A stretch of DNA of 64,000 bases from a virus, in the IMG/VR virus record IMGVR_UViG_3300045988_076685, positions 117,466-181,465 of that record; one strand, written 5' to 3'. Below are positions 4,781-57,919 of this stretch, in pieces. The position numbers were made by a program, and so were the translations under genes. Within the stretch, counting starts at the first letter, position 1, and each line of letters opens with the position of its first letter. The notes under the pieces are model-generated. The model was not told where the DNA came from, made no database searches, and saw only the letters and a program-made list of their open reading frames with translations.

Positions 4781-5189
4781 ATAAATATACTCTATCTCCT
4801 TTAGGAGTAAGAAATCCCTCAGTAAAAGCGTTTATTTTTTCTTTATTACAATTCTCCCAAGTATTTCTATTTACAGCTTCTTTAAGAGATTTATTATAAT
4901 AAATTATATCTAAGATTGTCTCCCAATATACATCATTATTATTAGTTTGAAAAGTTAATAATAGTTGATATTTCTTAAATACTTCTAAATTTATTTGAGG
5001 GACAAATTCAAATCTAGGACTATCATATTTATCTTTCCAAGTAACGTCATAACTATGTAACTCAATCCATTTATTAGGAAGTCTATAAGGTAGCCCTGAT
5101 ATTATGGGTCCAAAATAAATGGAAGGTTTAGGAATTCTAAACCATTTCCTAACCTTCCACCATGTTCTAAGAGGATTCTCCATCAGCAC
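4773..5189 (-). CDS. hypothetical protein
   Basis: 138 aa ORF. Confidence 0.4.
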   Translation of the reverse strand: MLMENPLRTWWKVRKWFRIPKPSIYFGPIISGLPYRLPNKWIELHSYDVTWKDKYDSPRFEFVPQINLEVFKKYQLLLTFQTNNNDVYWETILDIIYYNKSLKEAVNRNTWENCNKEKINAFTEGFLTPKGDRVYLYE

Positions 5190-5436
5190 GTCTTAAATAA
5201 GGTAATAACTTTTCTTCTATTGCTCTATAAAAACGCGGACAAACTTCCTCATATACCTGAGTTCCATATAAAGCTTGAATAATTTCTTCTTTATTTAACT
5301 GCCACTCTTCCATATAAGATAGAGTGGATTTAATAGACATATCTGAATCAGTATGTAAGAATTTTATATAATCAAATATATCTTTAATACTTACATCTAA
5401 TTCATCTGTTGTGAGATATTGATATGAAATTTTCAT
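5167..5436 (-). CDS. hypothetical protein
   Basis: 89 aa ORF. Confidence 0.35.
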   Translation of the reverse strand: MKISYQYLTTDELDVSIKDIFDYIKFLHTDSDMSIKSTLSYMEEWQLNKEEIIQALYGTQVYEEVCPRFYRAIEEKLLPYLRRADGESS

Positions 5437-28961: not shown

Positions 28962-29771
28962 TCAGATAACATTAAGCATTGTAACGTTCTCAGGAAGATT
29001 ATCCCAATCTTTGTAAGAATTAGTAAACCATACGTGGTTAAAGTTTTCTGACAGATTCTTTATACCATTAGGATTTACCATATGAGTAACTGCAATATTT
29101 AAACGCTCTTTAGGAATACCTAAAGCATTAAATGCTTTAGCAATACCACAGAAGGTTCCACCACCATCACATAAATCATCAAGAATTAACAGAGATTTAT
29201 CCTGTATACTTTCAGGATTATCTATTTTAATCTCTAAGATTTTCCCAGTAGTTAAATCTCGAACTTTACTACAAGTAATTCCTACGCGATTATATCTGAA
29301 TTCATTTCTCTTTACAGCTCCGGCATCTGGGAAAACTAATTGAAATTCTTTCCAAGTATTATTAGATGGATTCTTTTCACCATAGAGAGGCATAAATTTA
29401 ACTCCGAATCTAGGATCATAATAAACATCAGAATGAGGTTCTAAAATTTCAATAGTCTCTGCATTACAATTTTTTAATATATTTAAGACTATTTTTAAAG
29501 TGAATGGTCTATTGAAATCCATTACTCGGTCCATTCTCATACTCATTAAGTAATAGATATTTAACTTATATAGAACTTCATGTCTATCAAGAATATCTAA
29601 AACTTGCATAAGTATAAATAAGTCTTCAGCATTAGTAACTCTACATTTTACTAATACTTGTTCCTTATGACTGAATTCTTCTAAGGAAATTTGAACTTCC
29701 CCATCAGGAAATCTAAAGATAGAATATTTAATATCACTATTTTCTAAATGTACTAAATTTAATTGTTGCAT
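28962..29771 (-). CDS. ribose-phosphate pyrophosphokinase-like protein (candidate ADPR-pyrophosphate synthetase Adps)
   Basis: 269 aa; Prs-family motifs FPDGEV (cf. FSDGEV), FPDAGAVKR, PRPP-binding loop LILDDLCDGGGTFCGIAKA (cf. VLVDDMIDTGGTLC); shorter than canonical Prs. Confidence 0.6.
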   Translation of the reverse strand: MQQLNLVHLENSDIKYSIFRFPDGEVQISLEEFSHKEQVLVKCRVTNAEDLFILMQVLDILDRHEVLYKLNIYYLMSMRMDRVMDFNRPFTLKIVLNILKNCNAETIEILEPHSDVYYDPRFGVKFMPLYGEKNPSNNTWKEFQLVFPDAGAVKRNEFRYNRVGITCSKVRDLTTGKILEIKIDNPESIQDKSLLILDDLCDGGGTFCGIAKAFNALGIPKERLNIAVTHMVNPNGIKNLSENFNHVWFTNSYKDWDNLPENVTMLNVI

Positions 29772-30253
29772 AATTTATAAATATAAAGAGTCATTGTTGT
29801 ATCATTAGCAAAAAGTTCTTGGAGCATAGGATAAACTACTCCATCCCAATCTCCTCCTGCTAATCCACATCCTAATTTATAAGGAATACCTAGCTCTGTA
29901 ATCTCGTTATTTTCACAAAAGTCTTTTAAATTTAACAAAGCTTTTTTAAGAGCATTATAGTCAGTATGTCTATTTTCATAAGGAGCTACTGATTCAGTAA
30001 AAGAATATTCTCCAAATAAATTAGCTACGAGATTAATAGGTTCATCTCCTGTTATACATACTTGACATTTTCCTAATAATTCTTTAGAATATTTAAGAAG
30101 TTTACAAAAATTAGTATATTGTGTATATACTAAACTCCATTTGTTTTTAATAGATTTAGCTATACCTGCTCCCATTACTCCTAAACAATTAGTTTGATGA
30201 GCTATAAGAGGTAAATTTGATTGGAGTAAATCTCCATCAACAATTTTTATCAT
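29759..30253 (-). CDS. macro-domain protein (TARG1/OARD1-like ADP-ribose processing)
   Basis: 164 aa; N-terminal LIAHQTNCLGVMGAGIAKSI matches the AHC..C.MGAGIA signature of TARG1-type macro domains; overlaps both neighbours by 4-13 nt. Confidence 0.55.
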   Translation of the reverse strand: MIKIVDGDLLQSNLPLIAHQTNCLGVMGAGIAKSIKNKWSLVYTQYTNFCKLLKYSKELLGKCQVCITGDEPINLVANLFGEYSFTESVAPYENRHTDYNALKKALLNLKDFCENNEITELGIPYKLGCGLAGGDWDGVVYPMLQELFANDTTMTLYIYKLCNN

Positions 30254-31803
30254 ATTAATGTTGAATTTACACGTTCACGAATTTCAGAAAGAGAATATTC
30301 TCTTACTAATTCTCCATCTACAAAGACTGTTTTAAGACAACCTTGCAGTTCTGCATCCTTAGTCTGCTGGTCATAAGCGACATACTTGCCATTCTCTTCT
30401 TCAACTCTAATAAGACCTTTGAAAGAGTTCTTTGTTCCATCGTCAGTTTTTGGATGCTTATAGATTTCTATAAGTCTTCCATTAATTATACAAGCAGTTG
30501 CTTTAACTGCGAATCCCAAAGAATCACGAGACTTAAACTGATAAGTATAAGAACCAATACCAAGAACAAGATTACAAGCTGCCATATGAGCATTCTCTAA
30601 TCGAGCATAAATATCACGCTGACGTTCCAGAGTGATAGAATCTCCATAAAGCAATCCTACCTTGGTACTTGGATAACGATAGTCGTTTACAGTAGTATTC
30701 CAGCCAAAGATTTTACCTAGCATATAATATGCTCCATAATACTGACCTTCAGATACTTCTACATAATGACTTTCATCATCATCCATAAATGGATTAAAAT
30801 CACAGTAGTACTTACCCTCTTTCATGGCAGTATGATAGTGAGGATTTGTACGAAGACCACAAATAATATCTACTGGATCACCACTATCAGGGCGAATTAC
30901 TACTCGACCATCACGCTTCATAATATCTGCCTTAAGCTTAGGCAAAAACTTTTCAACTACCTGCCAGAAATCCCAAGTATCAGATACTATTGAGATAATA
31001 CCCGTTGGATATAAGTCATTAATAAGACGACGATATGTTTCAATCTCGTCATCCTCACCTCCTGCACACATTACACTGTGTTCAGTTGCTGGAACAGTTG
31101 CAGCTACAAGTTCTTTAGTAACATCTGCATTGTAATAATGCTCTACTGCTTCAATAGCAGGAATTGTTTCACTACCACAAAATGAAGTCATGTGAGCCAT
31201 ACCCGAAATAATAGCAGCATCAAGTCCAGCCATACCTCTCATAGAAAAATCATGGCAGGCGAAACCTAGGTTTACATCTTCTGGGAATCCAGTCTTTCTA
31301 GCATGTTCCATAAGTCTCTTCTTATAAAGACGAGCACTTGTTGCAGAAGTACAAGGAAGCCATAGAGTACAGCTAATCAAAGTCTCCAAATAATTAGTCA
31401 ACCAGAAGAAGTCCGGAAGAGTATTCTTAATAGTCATCATAGGTACTCTTATAGGACAGATGGAACCTTCAGGAAGAGCTTTAATTTCAATAGGAAGATA
31501 TCCTAAATCATAAAGTTCCTCAATATGCTTTGTTCCAACCTGATTAAGGTCTACAAAGTTACCTACACGATAAGCAAATTGCTTGATAGCTTCTTCCTTA
31601 GGAAGAGCAAACCATTTGTTAAATTCCTCTATTAAATACTTCTTTACAAAGTACTGAATACCAAATACTACAGAACCTTCTGTAGCTTCTGGGAAGTAAC
31701 GATTACTTCTAGGAGTCCAGTTACTATAGACCATTTGTGTACCCTCTGGGTACATACGATGATGACCAAGCTTGTAGCCATCAGTTGCATTAATAATTTC
31801 CAT
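30250..31803 (-). CDS. nicotinamide phosphoribosyltransferase-family protein (NadV/NAMPT-like; candidate nicotinamide-ADPR transferase Namat)
   Basis: 517 aa; N-terminal ATDGYKLGHHRMYPEGTQ aligns with NAMPT LATDSYKVTHYKQYPPNT; size typical of type II PRTases. Confidence 0.7.
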   Translation of the reverse strand: MEIINATDGYKLGHHRMYPEGTQMVYSNWTPRSNRYFPEATEGSVVFGIQYFVKKYLIEEFNKWFALPKEEAIKQFAYRVGNFVDLNQVGTKHIEELYDLGYLPIEIKALPEGSICPIRVPMMTIKNTLPDFFWLTNYLETLISCTLWLPCTSATSARLYKKRLMEHARKTGFPEDVNLGFACHDFSMRGMAGLDAAIISGMAHMTSFCGSETIPAIEAVEHYYNADVTKELVAATVPATEHSVMCAGGEDDEIETYRRLINDLYPTGIISIVSDTWDFWQVVEKFLPKLKADIMKRDGRVVIRPDSGDPVDIICGLRTNPHYHTAMKEGKYYCDFNPFMDDDESHYVEVSEGQYYGAYYMLGKIFGWNTTVNDYRYPSTKVGLLYGDSITLERQRDIYARLENAHMAACNLVLGIGSYTYQFKSRDSLGFAVKATACIINGRLIEIYKHPKTDDGTKNSFKGLIRVEEENGKYVAYDQQTKDAELQGCLKTVFVDGELVREYSLSEIRERVNSTLI

Positions 31804-32293
31804 TAATTGATTCTTTTAATGTTAAACCTATACTATATTTATAAAACACTTCAGTTATATAACTCTTAGTTTTTTTGTGGATTTTCATATGAGGCTGCTG
31901 TTTAAGCCACCATGTATATTCCCTTCTAGGGTCAGCTCCATATGTTTTAGCCGCTGCTAAATAATCACATATAAGTTCTAGAACGTATTTTCTAGGCATT
32001 TTAGCAGGAATTCCTCCATTATCTAAGGAATGTATCCAATATTCATAGTGATGAGGATTTCTTCCTCTATGATGAAGGAATGTTTGACTATATCCTAATA
32101 TTCGACACTCATTCGCTAAGGAGCTCATTTTATCATCCCAGTACTTAATAGCTCTTGAGAATTCTGTAAAACTAAATTTAGACAAATCATGAGTAATACC
32201 TTGCCAATATAATCCTATTTGAAAGCAATATTTAGCAACATAATACTTATGAGTTAAAATTCGCTTTGTTAATTTTAACCAAACTAAGTTCAT
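31790..32293 (-). CDS. HD-motif protein (putative metal-dependent phosphohydrolase)
   Basis: 167 aa; ITHDLSKF and HHRGRNPHHYEYW histidine clusters; start overlaps NAMPT-like gene by 14 nt. Confidence 0.35.
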   Translation of the reverse strand: MNLVWLKLTKRILTHKYYVAKYCFQIGLYWQGITHDLSKFSFTEFSRAIKYWDDKMSSLANECRILGYSQTFLHHRGRNPHHYEYWIHSLDNGGIPAKMPRKYVLELICDYLAAAKTYGADPRREYTWWLKQQPHMKIHKKTKSYITEVFYKYSIGLTLKESINGNY

Positions 32294-35152: not shown

Positions 35153-35232
35153 GTGCGAGATGTGGGAATCAAACCCACGCAAGCCTTCTGGTTGGAAGCC
35201 AGATATGCGCCTTCAGCTACACTAATCTCGCA
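35153..35232 (-). tRNA. tRNA-Gly (anticodon UCC)
   Basis: Hand-folded: acceptor GCGAGAU/AUCUCGC, anticodon arm ucugg-cuUCCaa-ccaga, T arm guggg-uuugauu-cccac; variable region slightly long. Confidence 0.6.
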
Positions 35233-35233
35233 T

Positions 35234-35572
35234 TTATTTATAAGATATCTTTCCAACGCATGAAGAATAAGAAATTTGTTTATTATTATTTTCTAATATA
35301 TAATAATAATCCTCAAATGTTTCTTGAATACCTTTAAAAACATATTCTTTATTCATATATCCATCCACGTAACAGGTTTTTCCTACATTAAGTAGTTCTT
35401 CTTTTACCCATTTTGGAGCATCCTCAGGAACATCGTCTACAGAATAATAATTTCCTATTACTTCATACATTAATTTATTTATTAATTGTTGGAAAGTCTT
35501 TATTAAAATAGGAACATCTTCAGTTTTATACTTTAATGTTTCTAAATTGTCTGTATCAATAGTTATTTTCAT
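35234..35572 (-). CDS. hypothetical protein
   Basis: 112 aa ORF between two tRNAs. Confidence 0.4.
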   Translation of the reverse strand: MKITIDTDNLETLKYKTEDVPILIKTFQQLINKLMYEVIGNYYSVDDVPEDAPKWVKEELLNVGKTCYVDGYMNKEYVFKGIQETFEDYYYILENNNKQISYSSCVGKISYK

Positions 35573-35590
35573 AAATATTTAATTTAATAG

Positions 35591-35665
35591 TGGACCACGG
35601 TGGGACTCGAACCCACGACATCTACCTTGCAGAAGTAGCGTTCTAGCCAACTGAACTACGAGCCC
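35591..35665 (-). tRNA. tRNA-like gene, possibly Ala (UGC), acceptor stem imperfect
   Basis: Canonical D arm (GGGCUCGUAGUUCAGUUGGCUAGAACG) and T arm (gugggUUCGAGUcccac); anticodon loop ucUGCaa has C33; 3' acceptor strand CGUGGUC leaves two mismatches. Confidence 0.4.
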
Positions 35666-35675
35666 AAATTGGAGA

Positions 35676-36152
35676 TTACTCTCCAGTTAATTGTTTTATT
35701 TTAAGTTTAGCTTGTGTTAATTTATAGATTAAATCAAATATAGTATTTTTATTATCCTTAAGCTGTTTTCTAAGACCTTTATTAGTTAGTTTCATACTAT
35801 TAAAGTTCTTTAGATTATTTGCTATAGATTCTAATTCTTTAAAAGACTTAGTATCATCAAACAAAGATATATTAACTTTAGCTTGCAATTCTTTAATTTT
35901 AAGTTTTTGTTTTTCAATCTTATCTTCTAAAGATTGAATCTTATTATTTAAAGAATCTATACTAAGTCCATTCTCTAATTCGTCTATATAAGATTCTAAT
36001 TCTCCGATTTTTTGTTCTAGTCCAGCATAATGCTTTTTTCTTTCAGCATCGTACTCTTTAAAACTATTTATTTTTCTTTTTAAGACTGCTATAATAAAAT
36101 CCTTTTTATCATAAAAGTTTGCATCTGATTGATAATTAAAAGTCTCTTTCAT
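35676..36152 (-). CDS. coiled-coil hypothetical protein
   Basis: 158 aa; heptad-rich (LEQKIGELESYIDELENGLSIDSLNNKIQSLEDKIEKQKLKIKELQAKV). Confidence 0.45.
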   Translation of the reverse strand: MKETFNYQSDANFYDKKDFIIAVLKRKINSFKEYDAERKKHYAGLEQKIGELESYIDELENGLSIDSLNNKIQSLEDKIEKQKLKIKELQAKVNISLFDDTKSFKELESIANNLKNFNSMKLTNKGLRKQLKDNKNTIFDLIYKLTQAKLKIKQLTGE

Positions 36153-36174
36153 ATTATTTATTTTTATTAATTAG

Positions 36175-36258
36175 TTGTCTAGGAGAGATTCGAACTCCCG
36201 AAGCTAAATAGCGGCAAATTTACAGTTTGCTGTGGTTGACCACTTCACATACTAGACA
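36175..36258 (-). tRNA. tRNA-Tyr (anticodon GUA), type II
   Basis: Acceptor UGUCUAG/CUAGACA, A73, anticodon arm gcaaa-cuGUAaa-uuugc, long variable arm with gcua-uuu-agc hairpin, T arm gggag-UUCGAAU-cucuc. Confidence 0.75.
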
Positions 36259-36265
36259 ATTTTGT

Positions 36266-36336
36266 TCGGGGTGTGGGAGTTGAACCCACTATTTTCTGCT
36301 TATGAGACAGACGTGTAAGCCGTTTCACTCACCCCA
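36266..36336 (-). tRNA. tRNA-Met (anticodon CAU)
   Basis: Acceptor UGGGGUG/CACCCCG, anticodon loop CUCAUAA, T arm gugggUUCAACUcccac. Confidence 0.6.
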
Positions 36337-36348
36337 AATATAAATAAG

Positions 36349-36421
36349 AGCTTCAAGTAGGATTCGAACCTACGACCTGCACTTTACAAGAGTGCTGCAC
36401 TACCACTGTGCTATTGAAGCT
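36349..36421 (-). tRNA. tRNA-Thr (anticodon UGU)
   Basis: Acceptor AGCUUCA/UGAAGCU, anticodon arm gcacu-cuUGUaa-agugc, T arm guaggUUCGAAUccuac. Confidence 0.75.
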
Positions 36422-36565
36422 AAAATAAAGGCGAATATGGCATTAGACGGGCGAACTATCATGACCATATTCTAATAATACATTGAGCTATCAGGCATAC
36501 TCGTGGATCGCCACCGCTACCTCTAACAACCGCCTAGTTAACAGCTAGGTCCTCTCCATTATTTG

Positions 36566-36642
36566 CGGGGTATAAGGGATTCGAACCCTTAGTTTTACTA
36601 GAGTGACAGTCTAGTTCCCTTACCAACAGGGCTTAATACTCC
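36566..36642 (-). tRNA. tRNA-Asp (anticodon GUC)
   Basis: Anticodon arm cuaga-cuGUCac-ucuag (classic Asp loop), T arm aagggUUCGAAUcccuu; one A-C mismatch in acceptor. Confidence 0.65.
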
Positions 36643-36713
36643 AGGCGCCTCTTGTGTACACATTTCTTTTCGAGAAGGTAGCTAACCTTAGAAATAAGAG
36701 GCATATATTATTG

Positions 36714-36794
36714 CGTCTAGACTGGGATTCGAACCCAGGAACCTTTCGGGGCAAGTTAACAGCTTGCTGCCGTTGACCACTTGGCTATCTAGAC
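36714..36794 (-). tRNA. tRNA with Asn anticodon (GUU) on a type-II, tRNA-Tyr-like body, G73
   Basis: Acceptor GUCUAGA/UCUAGAC, D arm gcc-aaguggucaa-ggc identical in loop to the Tyr tRNA, anticodon arm gcaag-cuGUUaa-cuugc, 12-nt variable arm, T arm cugggUUCGAAUcccag. Confidence 0.6.
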
Positions 36795-43850: not shown

Positions 43851-43940
43851 AATTAACAGTTAAAATTAAACAAAAATCCCTGAACTATAATAATAGTCCA
43901 GGGATTAAAAACAAATAATAAAAACAGTTCTATGAACTAG

Positions 43941-44272
43941 TGGAGATGAGGGGAGTCGAACCCCTGTCACTCCGATTTGCATCAAAACATTCTTACAGCA
44001 TAGGTTTTAAAGACTATCCTTGTCTGCTAGGGTTGACAAGATTAACATATTGTCAACTTCCACCACTCTGTTCCTAAAGTATACAGAGAACTTACAAAAG
44101 AAATGGAAAATAGTGCACCTTTCTGTTCACAAGCAAGTGCTGCTCGGCTTCTCAGGCAGCAGCCTGATAAGCAGGAGTCATATTAATAACTCTAGCGATT
44201 ATTGTTTTGTTGTCTCTCCAACTGTCTTGCTGTGTTCCTTATCTCCTCGAAGTTCAAAACCAAAACATCCCC
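43941..44272 (-). ncRNA. ssrA: tmRNA (ssrA), phage-encoded
   Basis: 5' end GGGGAUGUUUUGGUUUUGAACUUCGAGG matches conserved tmRNA 5' consensus. 3' end has T arm GGGGUUCGACUCCCC and acceptor strand CAUCUCC-A pairing with the 5' GGGGAUG. Internal frame AAUAAUC|GCU AGA GUU AUU AAU AUG ACU CCU GCU UAU CAG GCU GCU GCC UGA encodes tag ARVINMTPAYQAAA. Confidence 0.7.
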
Positions 44273-57254: not shown

Positions 57255-57734
57255 ATGAAACCTGGCATTTCAGTCTGTCAAAGACTTTGGAGAAGTAATA
57301 CGAATCGAACGTACTTCAACTACTTAGATAACTAATGATAGAAAGCTTTTACCTGCAATATTATATTGTGTTATCTTTCGCCTTATCACCTGTCCTACAT
57401 ACTTGCAATTATATAGGTAACTTCTCTTTTCCCTAATTAGGTATAACGATTGAAACTTCGCAGTGGGGGACTTACGAATTAAACGTACTTCGAAACTTTC
57501 GTTCACAATTCCTAGGGAGTTACTAGAATTACCCTATTCCATTGTTTCCATTTCTTATCAATCTGCCCTATAATATTCGCGACTATATAGGTATCCCCCA
57601 AGTTGGTTGCATTTGTTTGATATATCCTTCTTAATCTAACTAATAAACAACATTAGTTAATTAATATTCTTTTACCAGTCGGGTGCAACCTATGTATCTA
57701 TATATATCTAGAATACAAACCAACCCGATTTCCG

Positions 57735-57816
57735 TCGGAATAGTGGGACTCGAACCCACACGCATTACTGCATATGCTCCTAGGGCATACGTGTCTACCA
57801 ATTCCACCATACTCCG
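57735..57816 (-). tRNA. tRNA-Leu (anticodon UAG), type II
   Basis: Acceptor CGGAGUA/UAUUCCG (one G-U), D arm GGUGGAAUUGGUAGACAC, anticodon arm uaugc-ccUAGga-gcaua (C33 unusual), variable hairpin gca-guaa-ugc, T arm guggGUUCGAGUcccac. Confidence 0.65.
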
Positions 57817-57919
57817 TAGTATCTTTTCATTTGCTATTATAAAAATAACTAACCCTAGAGAAAAGATATAAAAGACTAAGTTTTTATTGCACAGAATATT
57901 ATTATATGAATGCTTACTA

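Follow-up and report, generated by a model that had tools for sequence, protein, structure and literature searches.

A predicted NARP1-AP cassette for NAD+ reconstitution in a phage of the human gut

The locus described here lies in a 64-kb stretch of phage DNA, referred to as the window, which represents part of a genome of ~140-180 kb. The phage belongs to an uncultivated human-gut lineage, and TAG is recoded in its late genes. Re-checking the open reading frames of the window confirmed four genes between 28962 and 32293, all on the minus strand (Table 1), which overlap at their junctions by 13, 4 and 14 nt and are transcribed in the order DUF5662, Namat, Macro, Adps. The original prediction had described co-oriented genes overlapping at their junctions and had given motifs for the ORFs, with sizes for two of them, and every one of these sequence statements was borne out.

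The macro gene sits between the Namat homolog (4-nt overlap) and the Adps homolog (13-nt overlap). The Adps and Namat homologs share a strand and are parted solely by this 164-aa gene, the proximity expected of a NARP1 pair, and the gene between them carries PF01661, as in the operational definition of NARP1-AP (a PF01661, PF14519 or PF20016 gene no more than two genes from the NARP1 pair; bioRxiv 10.64898/2026.01.28.702374). Tight gene packing is not unique to the four genes and spans from ~33400 to ~27680. A 75-aa ORF upstream of DUF5662 overlaps it by 4 nt, and the single strong minus-strand terminator-like hairpin nearby is located at 33465-33435.

Table 1. Genes of the minus-strand array, with positions in the window
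Gene	Position	Strand	Product length (aa)
Adps-like (Prs homolog)	28962-29771	minus	269
Adpp-like macro-domain gene	29759-30253	minus	164
Namat-like (NAMPT homolog)	30250-31803	minus	517
DUF5662 gene ('HD' protein)	31790-32293	minus	167

Residue and profile comparisons of the NARP1 homologs

Based on its sequence, the Prs homolog is predicted to be an ADP-ribose pyrophosphokinase that converts ADPR and ATP to ADPR-PP and AMP. It carries FPDGEV at residues 21-26 and the PP loop DDLCDGGGTF at residues 198-207 (window 29180-29151; DDLCDGGGT at 198-206). The aligned loops of Adps proteins read DDICDGAASF in ICP1, DDISDGGASF in Gary and DDICDGGRTF in a felixounavirus, and E. coli Prs has DDMIDTGGTL at this position; the window loop has Cys215, Gly217 and Phe221 in common with Adps, where Prs has Ile, Thr and Leu. 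Residue roles in Adps have been described for the donor-site PP loop (Cys215-Ser220 region) and for the hairpin with the catalytic Lys185 (PMC13586617). The aligned counterpart of Lys185 in the window protein is K169, within the hairpin KVRDLTTGKI, and a K(V/I)R(D/N)xxTGxI hairpin is common to Adps sequences and absent from Prs. Additionally, R87, H121, D161, D212, D213 and D216 of reference Adps correspond to R79, H113, D149, D198, D199 and D202, and the N-terminal helix and C-terminal tail of Prs are missing from the window protein.

Against the Prs model TIGR01251, which has a cut-off of 113 bits, the window protein scores 69.9 bits, the Adps references 98, 100 and 125 bits, and E. coli Prs 422.7 bits; a score near the validated Adps range and far under Prs supports the Adps identity. 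In Pfam/NCBIfam-type domain calls, all Prs and PRTase matches were sub-threshold. The hallmarks of canonical Prs, namely scores above curated cut-offs, the DT(G/A)GT ribose-5-phosphate loop and the Prs terminal elements, were not found in this protein, the loop being DGGGT. At 24-29% identity to characterized Adps proteins, the enzyme is very divergent. By its loop, K169 and its Prs-model score, it falls on the Adps side of the Prs-versus-Adps comparison.

The NAMPT homolog, which contains DGYKLGHHRMYP, is a predicted nicotinamide ADP-ribose transferase that would form NAD+ from ADPR-PP and nicotinamide. Its domain matches are NAPRTase (115.8 bits), NAMPT_N (37.1 bits) and NF006629 (515.6 bits), the last of which does not discriminate Namat from NadV. 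It matches SPbetaL1 Namat (PDB 9W5X/9W5W) with 479.6 bits versus ~209 bits for human NAMPT, and it is 42% identical to Gary Namat. The Namat adenine-clamp motif is present as GSYTYQFKSRD (residues 417-427), with Y at position 3, F at position 7 and two conservative departures from the consensus (Ser in place of Thr, and a Lys occupying Phi3). R35 is the counterpart of Arg40, the clamp-loop stacking residue of SPbetaL1 Namat, whose D13 and Y15 correspond to D8 and Y10. The Nampt-like catalytic core is also retained (HDFSMRG, PATEHSV and IRPDSGDP). In the comparison of Namat with NAMPT, the scores (480 versus 209 bits), the clamp motif and the clamp Arg all place the protein with Namat.

For the macro protein, in which residues 18-32 are AHQTNCLGVMGAGIA, the predicted activity is that of an ADPR-1''-phosphate phosphatase giving ADPR. 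The protein matches PF01661 with 29.3 bits (cut-off 22) and falls, together with the validated Gary Adpp (gp137), in phrog_335 ('phosphatase'); the two are 38% identical (pairwise E 1e-27) and have the segment GCGLAGGDWDxVVxPMxxELF in common. The solved macro structures that it matches are the same set as for Gary Adpp, among them Poa1p (6lfu; E 1.5e-5, and 1e-11 with a profile). Macro-family similarity by itself does not prove phosphatase activity. The earlier label 'TARG1-type' was apt for the macro subfamily and failed at the catalytic residues: in the alignment, E82 and an Ala (in GCGLA) take the places of TARG1 K84 (and the DarG Lys) and of TARG1 D125, where the residues of Gary Adpp are Gln and Ala. 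TARG1 K84, the DarG Lys and TARG1 Asp125 are the catalytic residues for glycohydrolysis.

Related phages and the DUF5662 gene

Natural relatives of the phage carry cassette variants with deletions, middle-gene swaps and group I introns inside Namat. In sister phages, a HAD-fold phosphatase lies between Namat and Adps in place of the macro gene, and one such phage (L055) has a Namat 93% identical to that of the window. The presence of a HAD-fold phosphatase in the same slot provides independent support for a phosphatase role of the middle gene, and the macro-to-HAD replacement, involving an uncharacterized HAD-fold family, may be a new observation. Given this natural variation in deletion alleles, Namat introns and the macro-to-HAD swap, the cassette is an accessory, fast-evolving module.

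The fourth gene, whose product was originally described as an 'HD' protein and contains ITHD, belongs to PF18907 (DUF5662; 109.9 bits). Its AlphaFold model is all helical (pLDDT 89.9), with cyclic-dinucleotide phosphodiesterases as fold neighbors. The family-invariant residues are H15, H35, D36, H75, H81, E106 and D110, of which H15, H35-D36, H75, H81 and D110 are compatible with an H...HD...D(H) metal-ligand pattern; there is no Pfam HD match. This small protein has a predicted HD-like fold and is probably a metal-dependent phosphohydrolase. The gene is co-oriented and probably co-transcribed with the NARP1 genes, and it is most likely an independent neighbor rather than an obligate fourth step.

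Proposed pathway and alternative readings

We consider it likely, from sequence comparisons, that 28962-31803 on the minus strand encode NARP1-AP ('NARP1 with associated phosphatase'; Osterman et al., bioRxiv January 2026, 10.64898/2026.01.28.702374), a counter-defence that would rebuild NAD+ from the products of host NADases. The proposed steps rest on homology to proteins for which the biochemistry has been shown. The Adpp-like macro protein would strip the 1''-phosphate from ADPR-1''-phosphate, the product of NAD+ cleavage by RES-domain aRES, and thus yield ADPR. Adps would then pyrophosphorylate ADPR at its 1'' position with ATP as donor, the ADPR coming either from the first step or directly from SIR2/TIR/SEFIR-type NADases, and Namat would swap the pyrophosphate of ADPR-PP for nicotinamide to give NAD+ directly; an NMN adenylyltransferase (NMNAT) would be unnecessary on this route. 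The residue-level comparisons support the original prediction in its choice of a NARP1-type Adps/Namat system over ordinary Prs/NadV salvage, and the role it had proposed first for the macro protein, supplying Adps with ADPR made from ADPR-1''-phosphate, is precisely what experiments have demonstrated for its homolog, Gary Adpp. In these respects its mechanism was right. It had also regarded the arrangement as an undescribed elaboration, and this claim of novelty was wrong, since a three-gene Adps-Macro-Namat operon was published in 2026 as NARP1-AP (bioRxiv 10.64898/2026.01.28.702374).

Ordinary NAD+ salvage, in which Prs would make PRPP, NadV would make NMN and an NMNAT of the host or from elsewhere in the phage would finish the route (a NARP2-like or partial system), is very improbable. 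Generic family models do name the proteins ribose-phosphate pyrophosphokinase and nicotinamide/nicotinate phosphoribosyltransferase, and phrog_619, which does not discriminate Adps from Prs, gives nearly equal scores to the window protein (208 bits) and E. coli Prs (193 bits). The complete Nampt catalytic core is likewise compatible with salvage, as is the ability of purified Namat to use PRPP in vitro (PMC12774641). However, clamp motif and clamp Arg are both present in the NAMPT homolog, which matches the Namat structure far better than it matches NAMPTs, and the Prs homolog lies under every curated Prs cut-off, near validated Adps, with DGGGT in place of the ribose-5-phosphate loop. An NMNAT-like gene had been reported as missing from the window, and both family and motif screens agreed: the 61 other window ORFs with a length of 110 aa or more gave no match to the NMNAT (CTP_transf_like), Nudix, NadR or PnuC families, a screen for (H/T)xGH was empty in the 64-kb window and in the relative MT835492.1, and the extra early genes of MT835492.1 contain no NMNAT, Nudix, NadR or PnuC. 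Because the window covers 64 kb of the ~140-180 kb genome, a circumstance that favors salvage, this absence holds for the window and for MT835492.1.

The two remaining alternatives concern the macro gene and DUF5662. The macro protein could be an ADP-ribosyl hydrolase acting on DarT-type DNA or protein ADP-ribosylation, independently of the NARP1 genes, which would suit its place in the TARG1/DarG/Poa1p subfamily, its best solved match (the M. tuberculosis DarG macrodomain, 5m3i), its best NCBIfam match (the DarG N-terminus) and its closest annotated homologs, from Geobacillus virus E3 (43%) and Bacillus phage Thrax5 (40%), which are stand-alone genes outside NARP1. This is unlikely, as the DarG score of 56.6 bits is far under the cut-off of 250, Glu82 and Ala at the TARG1/DarG catalytic positions follow the pattern of the validated phosphatase Adpp, the gene overlaps both Namat and Adps, and a HAD-fold phosphatase substitutes for it in sister operons. 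Equally doubtful is a pathway of four genes in which DUF5662 would convert another defence nucleotide (for instance a signalling nucleotide, or an ADPR derivative in cyclic or phosphorylated form) to a NARP1 substrate, or would destroy the signal. DUF5662 extends 14 nt into the start of Namat and keeps its position upstream of Namat in all close relatives, lies between Namat and Adps in L020 and just upstream of NARP1 in L016 and L019, and has been lost along with Namat from MT835492.1, which carries a deletion allele; its fold neighbors, and the precedent of the accessory feeders Adpp and RyDEP within NARP1 operons, also speak for a connection. Yet the linkage is seen solely within the lineage of the window phage, and the related phages L017, L018, L021 and L022 have DUF5662 with no NARP1 gene within 8 kb. 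NARP1 operons L052-L055 are without it, independent lineages place it amid DNA and nucleotide-metabolism genes and never beside NARP1, it occurs in only 11 phage records versus 1079 with an Adps homolog, and overlapping genes are the rule across the whole region.

A broader version of the four-gene proposal is a modular front end, with a macro or HAD phosphatase in the Namat-Adps slot and DUF5662 as feeder or signal-degrader, which would go beyond NARP1-AP. We think this improbable; if true, the two slot phosphatases could each be adapted to their own phosphorylated form of ADPR among the products of host defences. The HAD-fold family and DUF5662 are two candidate new NARP1 accessory enzymes. 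On the favored NARP1-AP reading, these phages would be exposed in the gut to defences that deplete NAD+, among them aRES-like RES-domain systems with ADPR-1''-phosphate as their product.

Comparison with known systems

NARP2 (KVP40 NadV and NatV) and NARP3 (PnuC and NadR) also restore NAD+ during infection, and NARP2 likewise uses a NAMPT-family enzyme. However, NARP2 relies on a NadV that prefers PRPP together with an NMNAT/Nudix enzyme, whereas the window has no NMNAT/Nudix gene and its NAMPT homolog bears the Namat clamp; NARP3 depends on the transporter PnuC and on a NadR-like enzyme, neither of which was found in the window. TARG1/OARD1, DarG and yeast Poa1p belong by sequence profile to the same macro subfamily as the window protein. 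The Lys and Asp for glycohydrolysis of TARG1 and DarG are missing from it, and it resembles the phosphatases of the subfamily, Poa1p and Adpp.

Core NARP1 (Bas63, SPbetaL1, ICP1), for which structures of Namat (9W5X/9W5W) and Adps (PMC13586617) are available, is alike in the PP loop, hairpin and Lys of Adps, in the clamp and core of Namat and in having the two genes as neighbors. It consists of two genes and is unable to use ADPR-1''-phosphate, whereas the window array has the macro insert. In mycobacteriophage DyoEdafos, NARP1 is extended by RyDEP, a RyR-domain glycosidase acting on 2'/3'cADPR (bioRxiv 10.64898/2026.05.28.727677). As predicted for the window, an accessory enzyme within the operon makes ADPR from a defence-derived ADPR derivative; the accessory gene of the window is a macro domain, and no RyR-domain gene was seen there.

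In Vibrio phage Gary, Adps-Adpp-Namat overcomes aRES, a defence that makes ADPR-1''-phosphate, and the purified Adpp, a Poa1p-like macro protein, turns ADPR-1P into ADPR, a function lost when certain of its residues are mutated; a Macro gene is found in 15% of 859 NARP1 operons (bioRxiv 10.64898/2026.01.28.702374). The window similarly has homologs of Adps, of the Poa1p-like Macro (38%) and of Namat (42%) in one tight array, with the macro gene central and no need for an NMNAT. Its order is Namat-Macro-Adps, whereas that of Gary is Adps-Adpp-Namat, and it differs further in the adjoining DUF5662 gene and in its very divergent Adps. The host of the window phage is probably a human-gut bacterium rather than Vibrio. 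The cassette would extend the published NARP1-AP to a human-gut phage lineage, with very divergent enzymes and a reversed gene order.

Layout and setting of the cassette

The prediction of four co-oriented, overlapping genes was borne out, and all of the motifs originally listed were found in the translations. Along the DUF5662/Namat/macro/Adps junctions the open reading frames (ORFs) overlap by 14, 4 and 13 nt. Since tight gene overlaps are general across ~33400 to ~27680, overlap per se does not set the four cassette genes apart. The surroundings in the window are those of phage replication and nucleotide metabolism (NrdD, dUTPase, dCTP deaminase, helicases, DnaB, ligase and RNase H). A sigma-70 promoter scan gave no signal (41 sites versus 46 expected).

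Features of the cassette and its surroundings in the window
Feature	Coordinates	Strand	Details
Terminator-like hairpin	33465-33435	minus	sole strong one nearby on this strand; upstream of cassette
DUF5662 gene ("HD" protein)	31790-32293	minus	167 aa; PF18907 109.9 bits
Namat-like gene	30250-31803	minus	517 aa; NAPRTase + NAMPT_N; NF006629 515.6 bits
Macro gene	29759-30253	minus	164 aa; PF01661 29.3 bits, over cut-off
Adps-like gene (Prs homolog)	28962-29771	minus	269 aa; Prs and phosphoribosyltransferase matches all sub-threshold
Phage-encoded tmRNA	43938-44272	minus	ARAGORN tag peptide ARVINMTPAYQAAA; Rfam RF00023 66.1 bits (gathering score 47)
Two tRNA clusters	35153-36794 and 57734-63990	minus	17 tRNAs by ARAGORN
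Further tRNA	63068-63139		Rfam alone
tRNA-Tyr	63907-63990		unusual anticodon ATA per ARAGORN

In the late region of the 94%-identical relative MT835492.1 (L049 38300-50000; L050; 63.3-121.6 kb, outside the window) the standard code yields almost no long ORFs. Treating TAG as a sense codon fills 73-96% of this region with ORFs of 150 aa or longer, the largest reaching 1780 aa. Because the long late ORFs appear only under this reading, TAG is recoded from stop to sense in the late genes of the lineage. The window itself is standard-coded in appearance and yielded no suppressor tRNA; the tRNA detected by Rfam alone was rejected as a suppressor, its anticodon loop reading tRNA-His (GTG).

Putative enzymes for NAD+ reconstitution

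The solved Adps is UniProt F1D1Q1. A solved-structure sequence search with the Adps-like protein returned only PRPS chains at ~42 bits, the set searched being without the new Adps entries. Our alignment was made directly to the ICP1 enzyme and reproduced the published numbering, with DDICDGAASFKF as D212-F223. Lys185 corresponds to K169 in the window protein, and R87, H121 and D161 to R79, H113 and D149. The N-terminal helix and C-terminal tail of Prs are absent from the window protein, as from all Adps sequences aligned. The family phrog_619 was rejected as a discriminator between Adps and Prs, as it gives 208 bits to the window protein and still 193 to E. coli Prs.

The Adps-like protein compared with Adps references and E. 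coli Prs
Feature	Window protein	Adps references	E. coli Prs
PP loop	DDLCDGGGTF	ICP1 DDICDGAASF; Gary DDISDGGASF; felixounavirus DDICDGGRTF	DDMIDTGGTL
Position 215	Cys	Cys (Gary Ser)	Ile
Position 217	Gly	Gly	Thr
Position 221	Phe	Phe	Leu
Catalytic hairpin	KVRDLTTGKI	ICP1 KIRDVKTGDI	DKRRPRANVS
TIGR01251 score (bits)	69.9	98, 100, 125	422.7

The best solved-structure matches of the 517-aa protein are 9W5X and 9W5W, crystal structures of the SPbetaL1 Namat, at 479.6 bits; human and other NAMPTs reach ~209 bits. [quoted passage not shown] Its counterpart in the window protein is GSYTYQFKSRD (aa 417-427), and the validated Namat of Vibrio phage Gary, with 42% identity overall, has GSFTYQYVTRD at the same place. 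By alignment, the clamp-loop Arg40 corresponds to R35 and D13/Y15 to D8/Y10, and the catalytic core is intact (HDFSMRG, PATEHSV, IRPDSGDP). NF006629 was rejected as a discriminator, for this model does not separate Namat from NadV. A NARP1-type mechanism is supported through homology to validated enzymes.

The original observation that the window holds no NMNAT also stood. CTP_transf_like, Nudix, NadR and PnuC (the last two constituting NARP3) were absent from the window's 61 other ORFs of 110 aa or more. The search was extended to MT835492.1, the only fully readable relative, which covers window positions 1-48415 plus a further 70 kb. Nine extra standard-coded early ORFs of that phage were scanned against Pfam and again included none of these families; a sigma factor, PolA, a LAGLIDADG endonuclease, a PNK-type phosphatase, ThyX and a dNMP kinase are among them, and three gave no Pfam match. 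The remainder of the 70 kb is occupied by a block of very large ORFs, visible only with TAG as a sense codon. A nucleotidyltransferase motif screen was likewise empty over the window and MT835492.1. Within this scope the absence of NMNAT does not decide the question in either direction, as NARP1 is already told apart from NadV/NatV salvage by the clamp and PP-loop tests.

The macro protein and Gary Adpp, the macro phosphatase of that Vibrio phage, both belong to phrog_335, share 38% identity (E 1e-27) and have in common a long C-terminal motif, GCGLAGGDWDxVVxPMxxELF. Both match the solved macro domains of TARG1, DarG, BT1257, 5e3b and Poa1p. In profile alignments, the lysine of TARG1 (LITKKRAS) and DarG (PTKKHW) is replaced by E82 in the window protein and by Gln in Adpp, and Asp125 of TARG1 (GCGLD) by Ala in both; these lysines and Asp125 are catalytic residues. 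The earlier description as a TARG1-type macro domain therefore holds as the name of a subfamily, not of a chemistry. The closest annotated homologs belong to Geobacillus virus E3 and Bacillus phage Thrax5; both genes stand alone, with no NARP1 operon around them, and were rejected as evidence from context. Similarity alone is consequently not diagnostic, and operon position must bear part of the argument.

The cassette among its relatives

Our comparison covered 33 viral loci carrying a DUF5662 homolog, one of which (L003) is essentially the window's phage. The order DUF5662-Namat-Macro-Adps is found in all close relatives. Among L003-L014, divergence is in nearly every case greatest in the protein of the macro gene (e.g. 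L004 10042-10533), with identities of 84-94% versus 91-99% (Namat), 85-99% (Adps) and 89-100% (DUF5662); in L012 Adps is lower still, at 85%. This suggests either faster evolution of the macro gene or recombination at the middle slot.

In the more distant L016 and L019, an ORF of 143-154 aa containing GFDFDNTIF lies between Namat and Adps, at 10356-10820 in L019. It has no Pfam match, and its family numbers 625 members, in which D31, D33, T35, K110, D118 and D119 are invariant or near-invariant and fit HAD motifs I, III and IV (AlphaFold model, pLDDT 91.1). The order Namat-HAD-Adps recurs in metagenomic contigs whose HAD homologs are only 52-57% identical. In one of these operons (L055), with the HAD gene at 5001-5432, Namat is 93% identical to that of the window and Adps has the same loop, DDLCDGGGTF, which argues for a recent swap of the middle gene. 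One slot thus alternates between two unrelated folds, each with known phosphatase members, and this lends independent, inferential support to the reading that the job of the middle slot would be dephosphorylation.

DUF5662 is conserved around YWQGITHDLSKF...HHxGxNxHHxEYW...CD, with H15, H35, D36, H75, H81, E106 and D110 invariant; its predicted model is confident (pLDDT 89.9), and the literature searched does not mention it. The gene adjoins NARP1 in close relatives, lies just upstream in L016 and L019 and stands between Namat and Adps in L020. It is present without any NARP1 gene in L017, L018, L021, L022 and L025-L035, and four metagenomic NARP1 operons (L052-L055) are without it. In a Moorella phage, a podovirus and three metagenomic lineages the gene is in no case adjacent to NARP1 and is surrounded by genes for RNR, primase, dCMP deaminase, ligase, PolB and glycosyltransferases. 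Across the 33 viral loci, two GenBank phages and three metagenomic lineages, DUF5662 was rejected as a general partner of NARP1. The linkage is confined to the window's phage lineage, so we treat DUF5662 as a neighbour, not an established partner; a functional partnership with NARP1 seems improbable.

Two decay alleles were observed. A clean 1851-bp deletion in MT835492.1 (L001 8248-8433; window ~30347-32197) joins DUF5662 aa 1-32 in frame to the final 29 aa of Namat, with a short microhomology at the junction (...YWQG|CLKTV...), leaving Macro and Adps without Namat. In L034 (8001-8495), Adps aa 150-269 come immediately after DUF5662 aa 1-63, and both Namat and the macro gene are gone.

Namat is uninterrupted in the window and interrupted in several close relatives: L023 (9980-10196, 10638-11219), L024, L005, L010, L013 and L014. 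Site A lies past the PATEHSV catalytic-His region, with inserts of 257 or ~777 bp for which Rfam gave no class. Site B lies three codons past the clamp motif and holds a 222-bp insert in L024. The site B insert of L023 is a group I intron (RF00028 59.3 bits, E 5e-14) carrying an ORF of LAGLIDADG type (LIGLIDGDGSIW); a focused Rfam scan detected the intron, which a run on entire relative loci at the gathering threshold had missed.

Prevotella phage Lak-B1 (MK250020.1 417951-418760; 39% identity) provides the best match to the Adps-like protein among phages outside its own lineage, and BT1257 and BT_0820 of Bacteroides thetaiotaomicron rank among the best structural matches for the macro and HAD proteins. 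Together these matches hint at a gut Bacteroidota host.

Relation to published NARP1 pathways

NARP1, consisting of Adps and Namat, was described in bioRxiv 10.1101/2024.02.11.579819. The aRES defence converts NAD+ to nicotinamide and ADPR-1''-phosphate, a product unusable by Adps (bioRxiv 10.64898/2026.01.28.702374). A Macro-domain gene is present in 15% of 859 NARP1 operons, and the Adps-Macro-Namat operon of Vibrio phage Gary defeats aRES, its Poa1p-like Adpp converting ADPR-1''-phosphate to ADPR; the same group named this three-gene pathway NARP1-AP in January 2026 (bioRxiv 10.64898/2026.01.28.702374). The leading hypothesis of the original prediction, a macro step from ADPR-1''-phosphate to ADPR, matches the activity published for Gary Adpp. 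The idea was correct yet already described, and the claim of an undescribed elaboration is superseded by that preprint. A second published accessory enzyme, RyDEP, is a RyR-domain glycosidase converting 2'/3'cADPR to ADPR (bioRxiv 10.64898/2026.05.28.727677).

A HAD partner of NARP1 is mentioned neither in bioRxiv 10.64898/2026.01.28.702374 and its supplements nor in the literature searched. The exchange of macro for HAD in sister phages and the neighbouring DUF5662 protein, with its predicted HD-like fold, are more novel leads than the cassette itself, which, judged from its sequence, adds a new and divergent member to the known NARP1-AP pathway.
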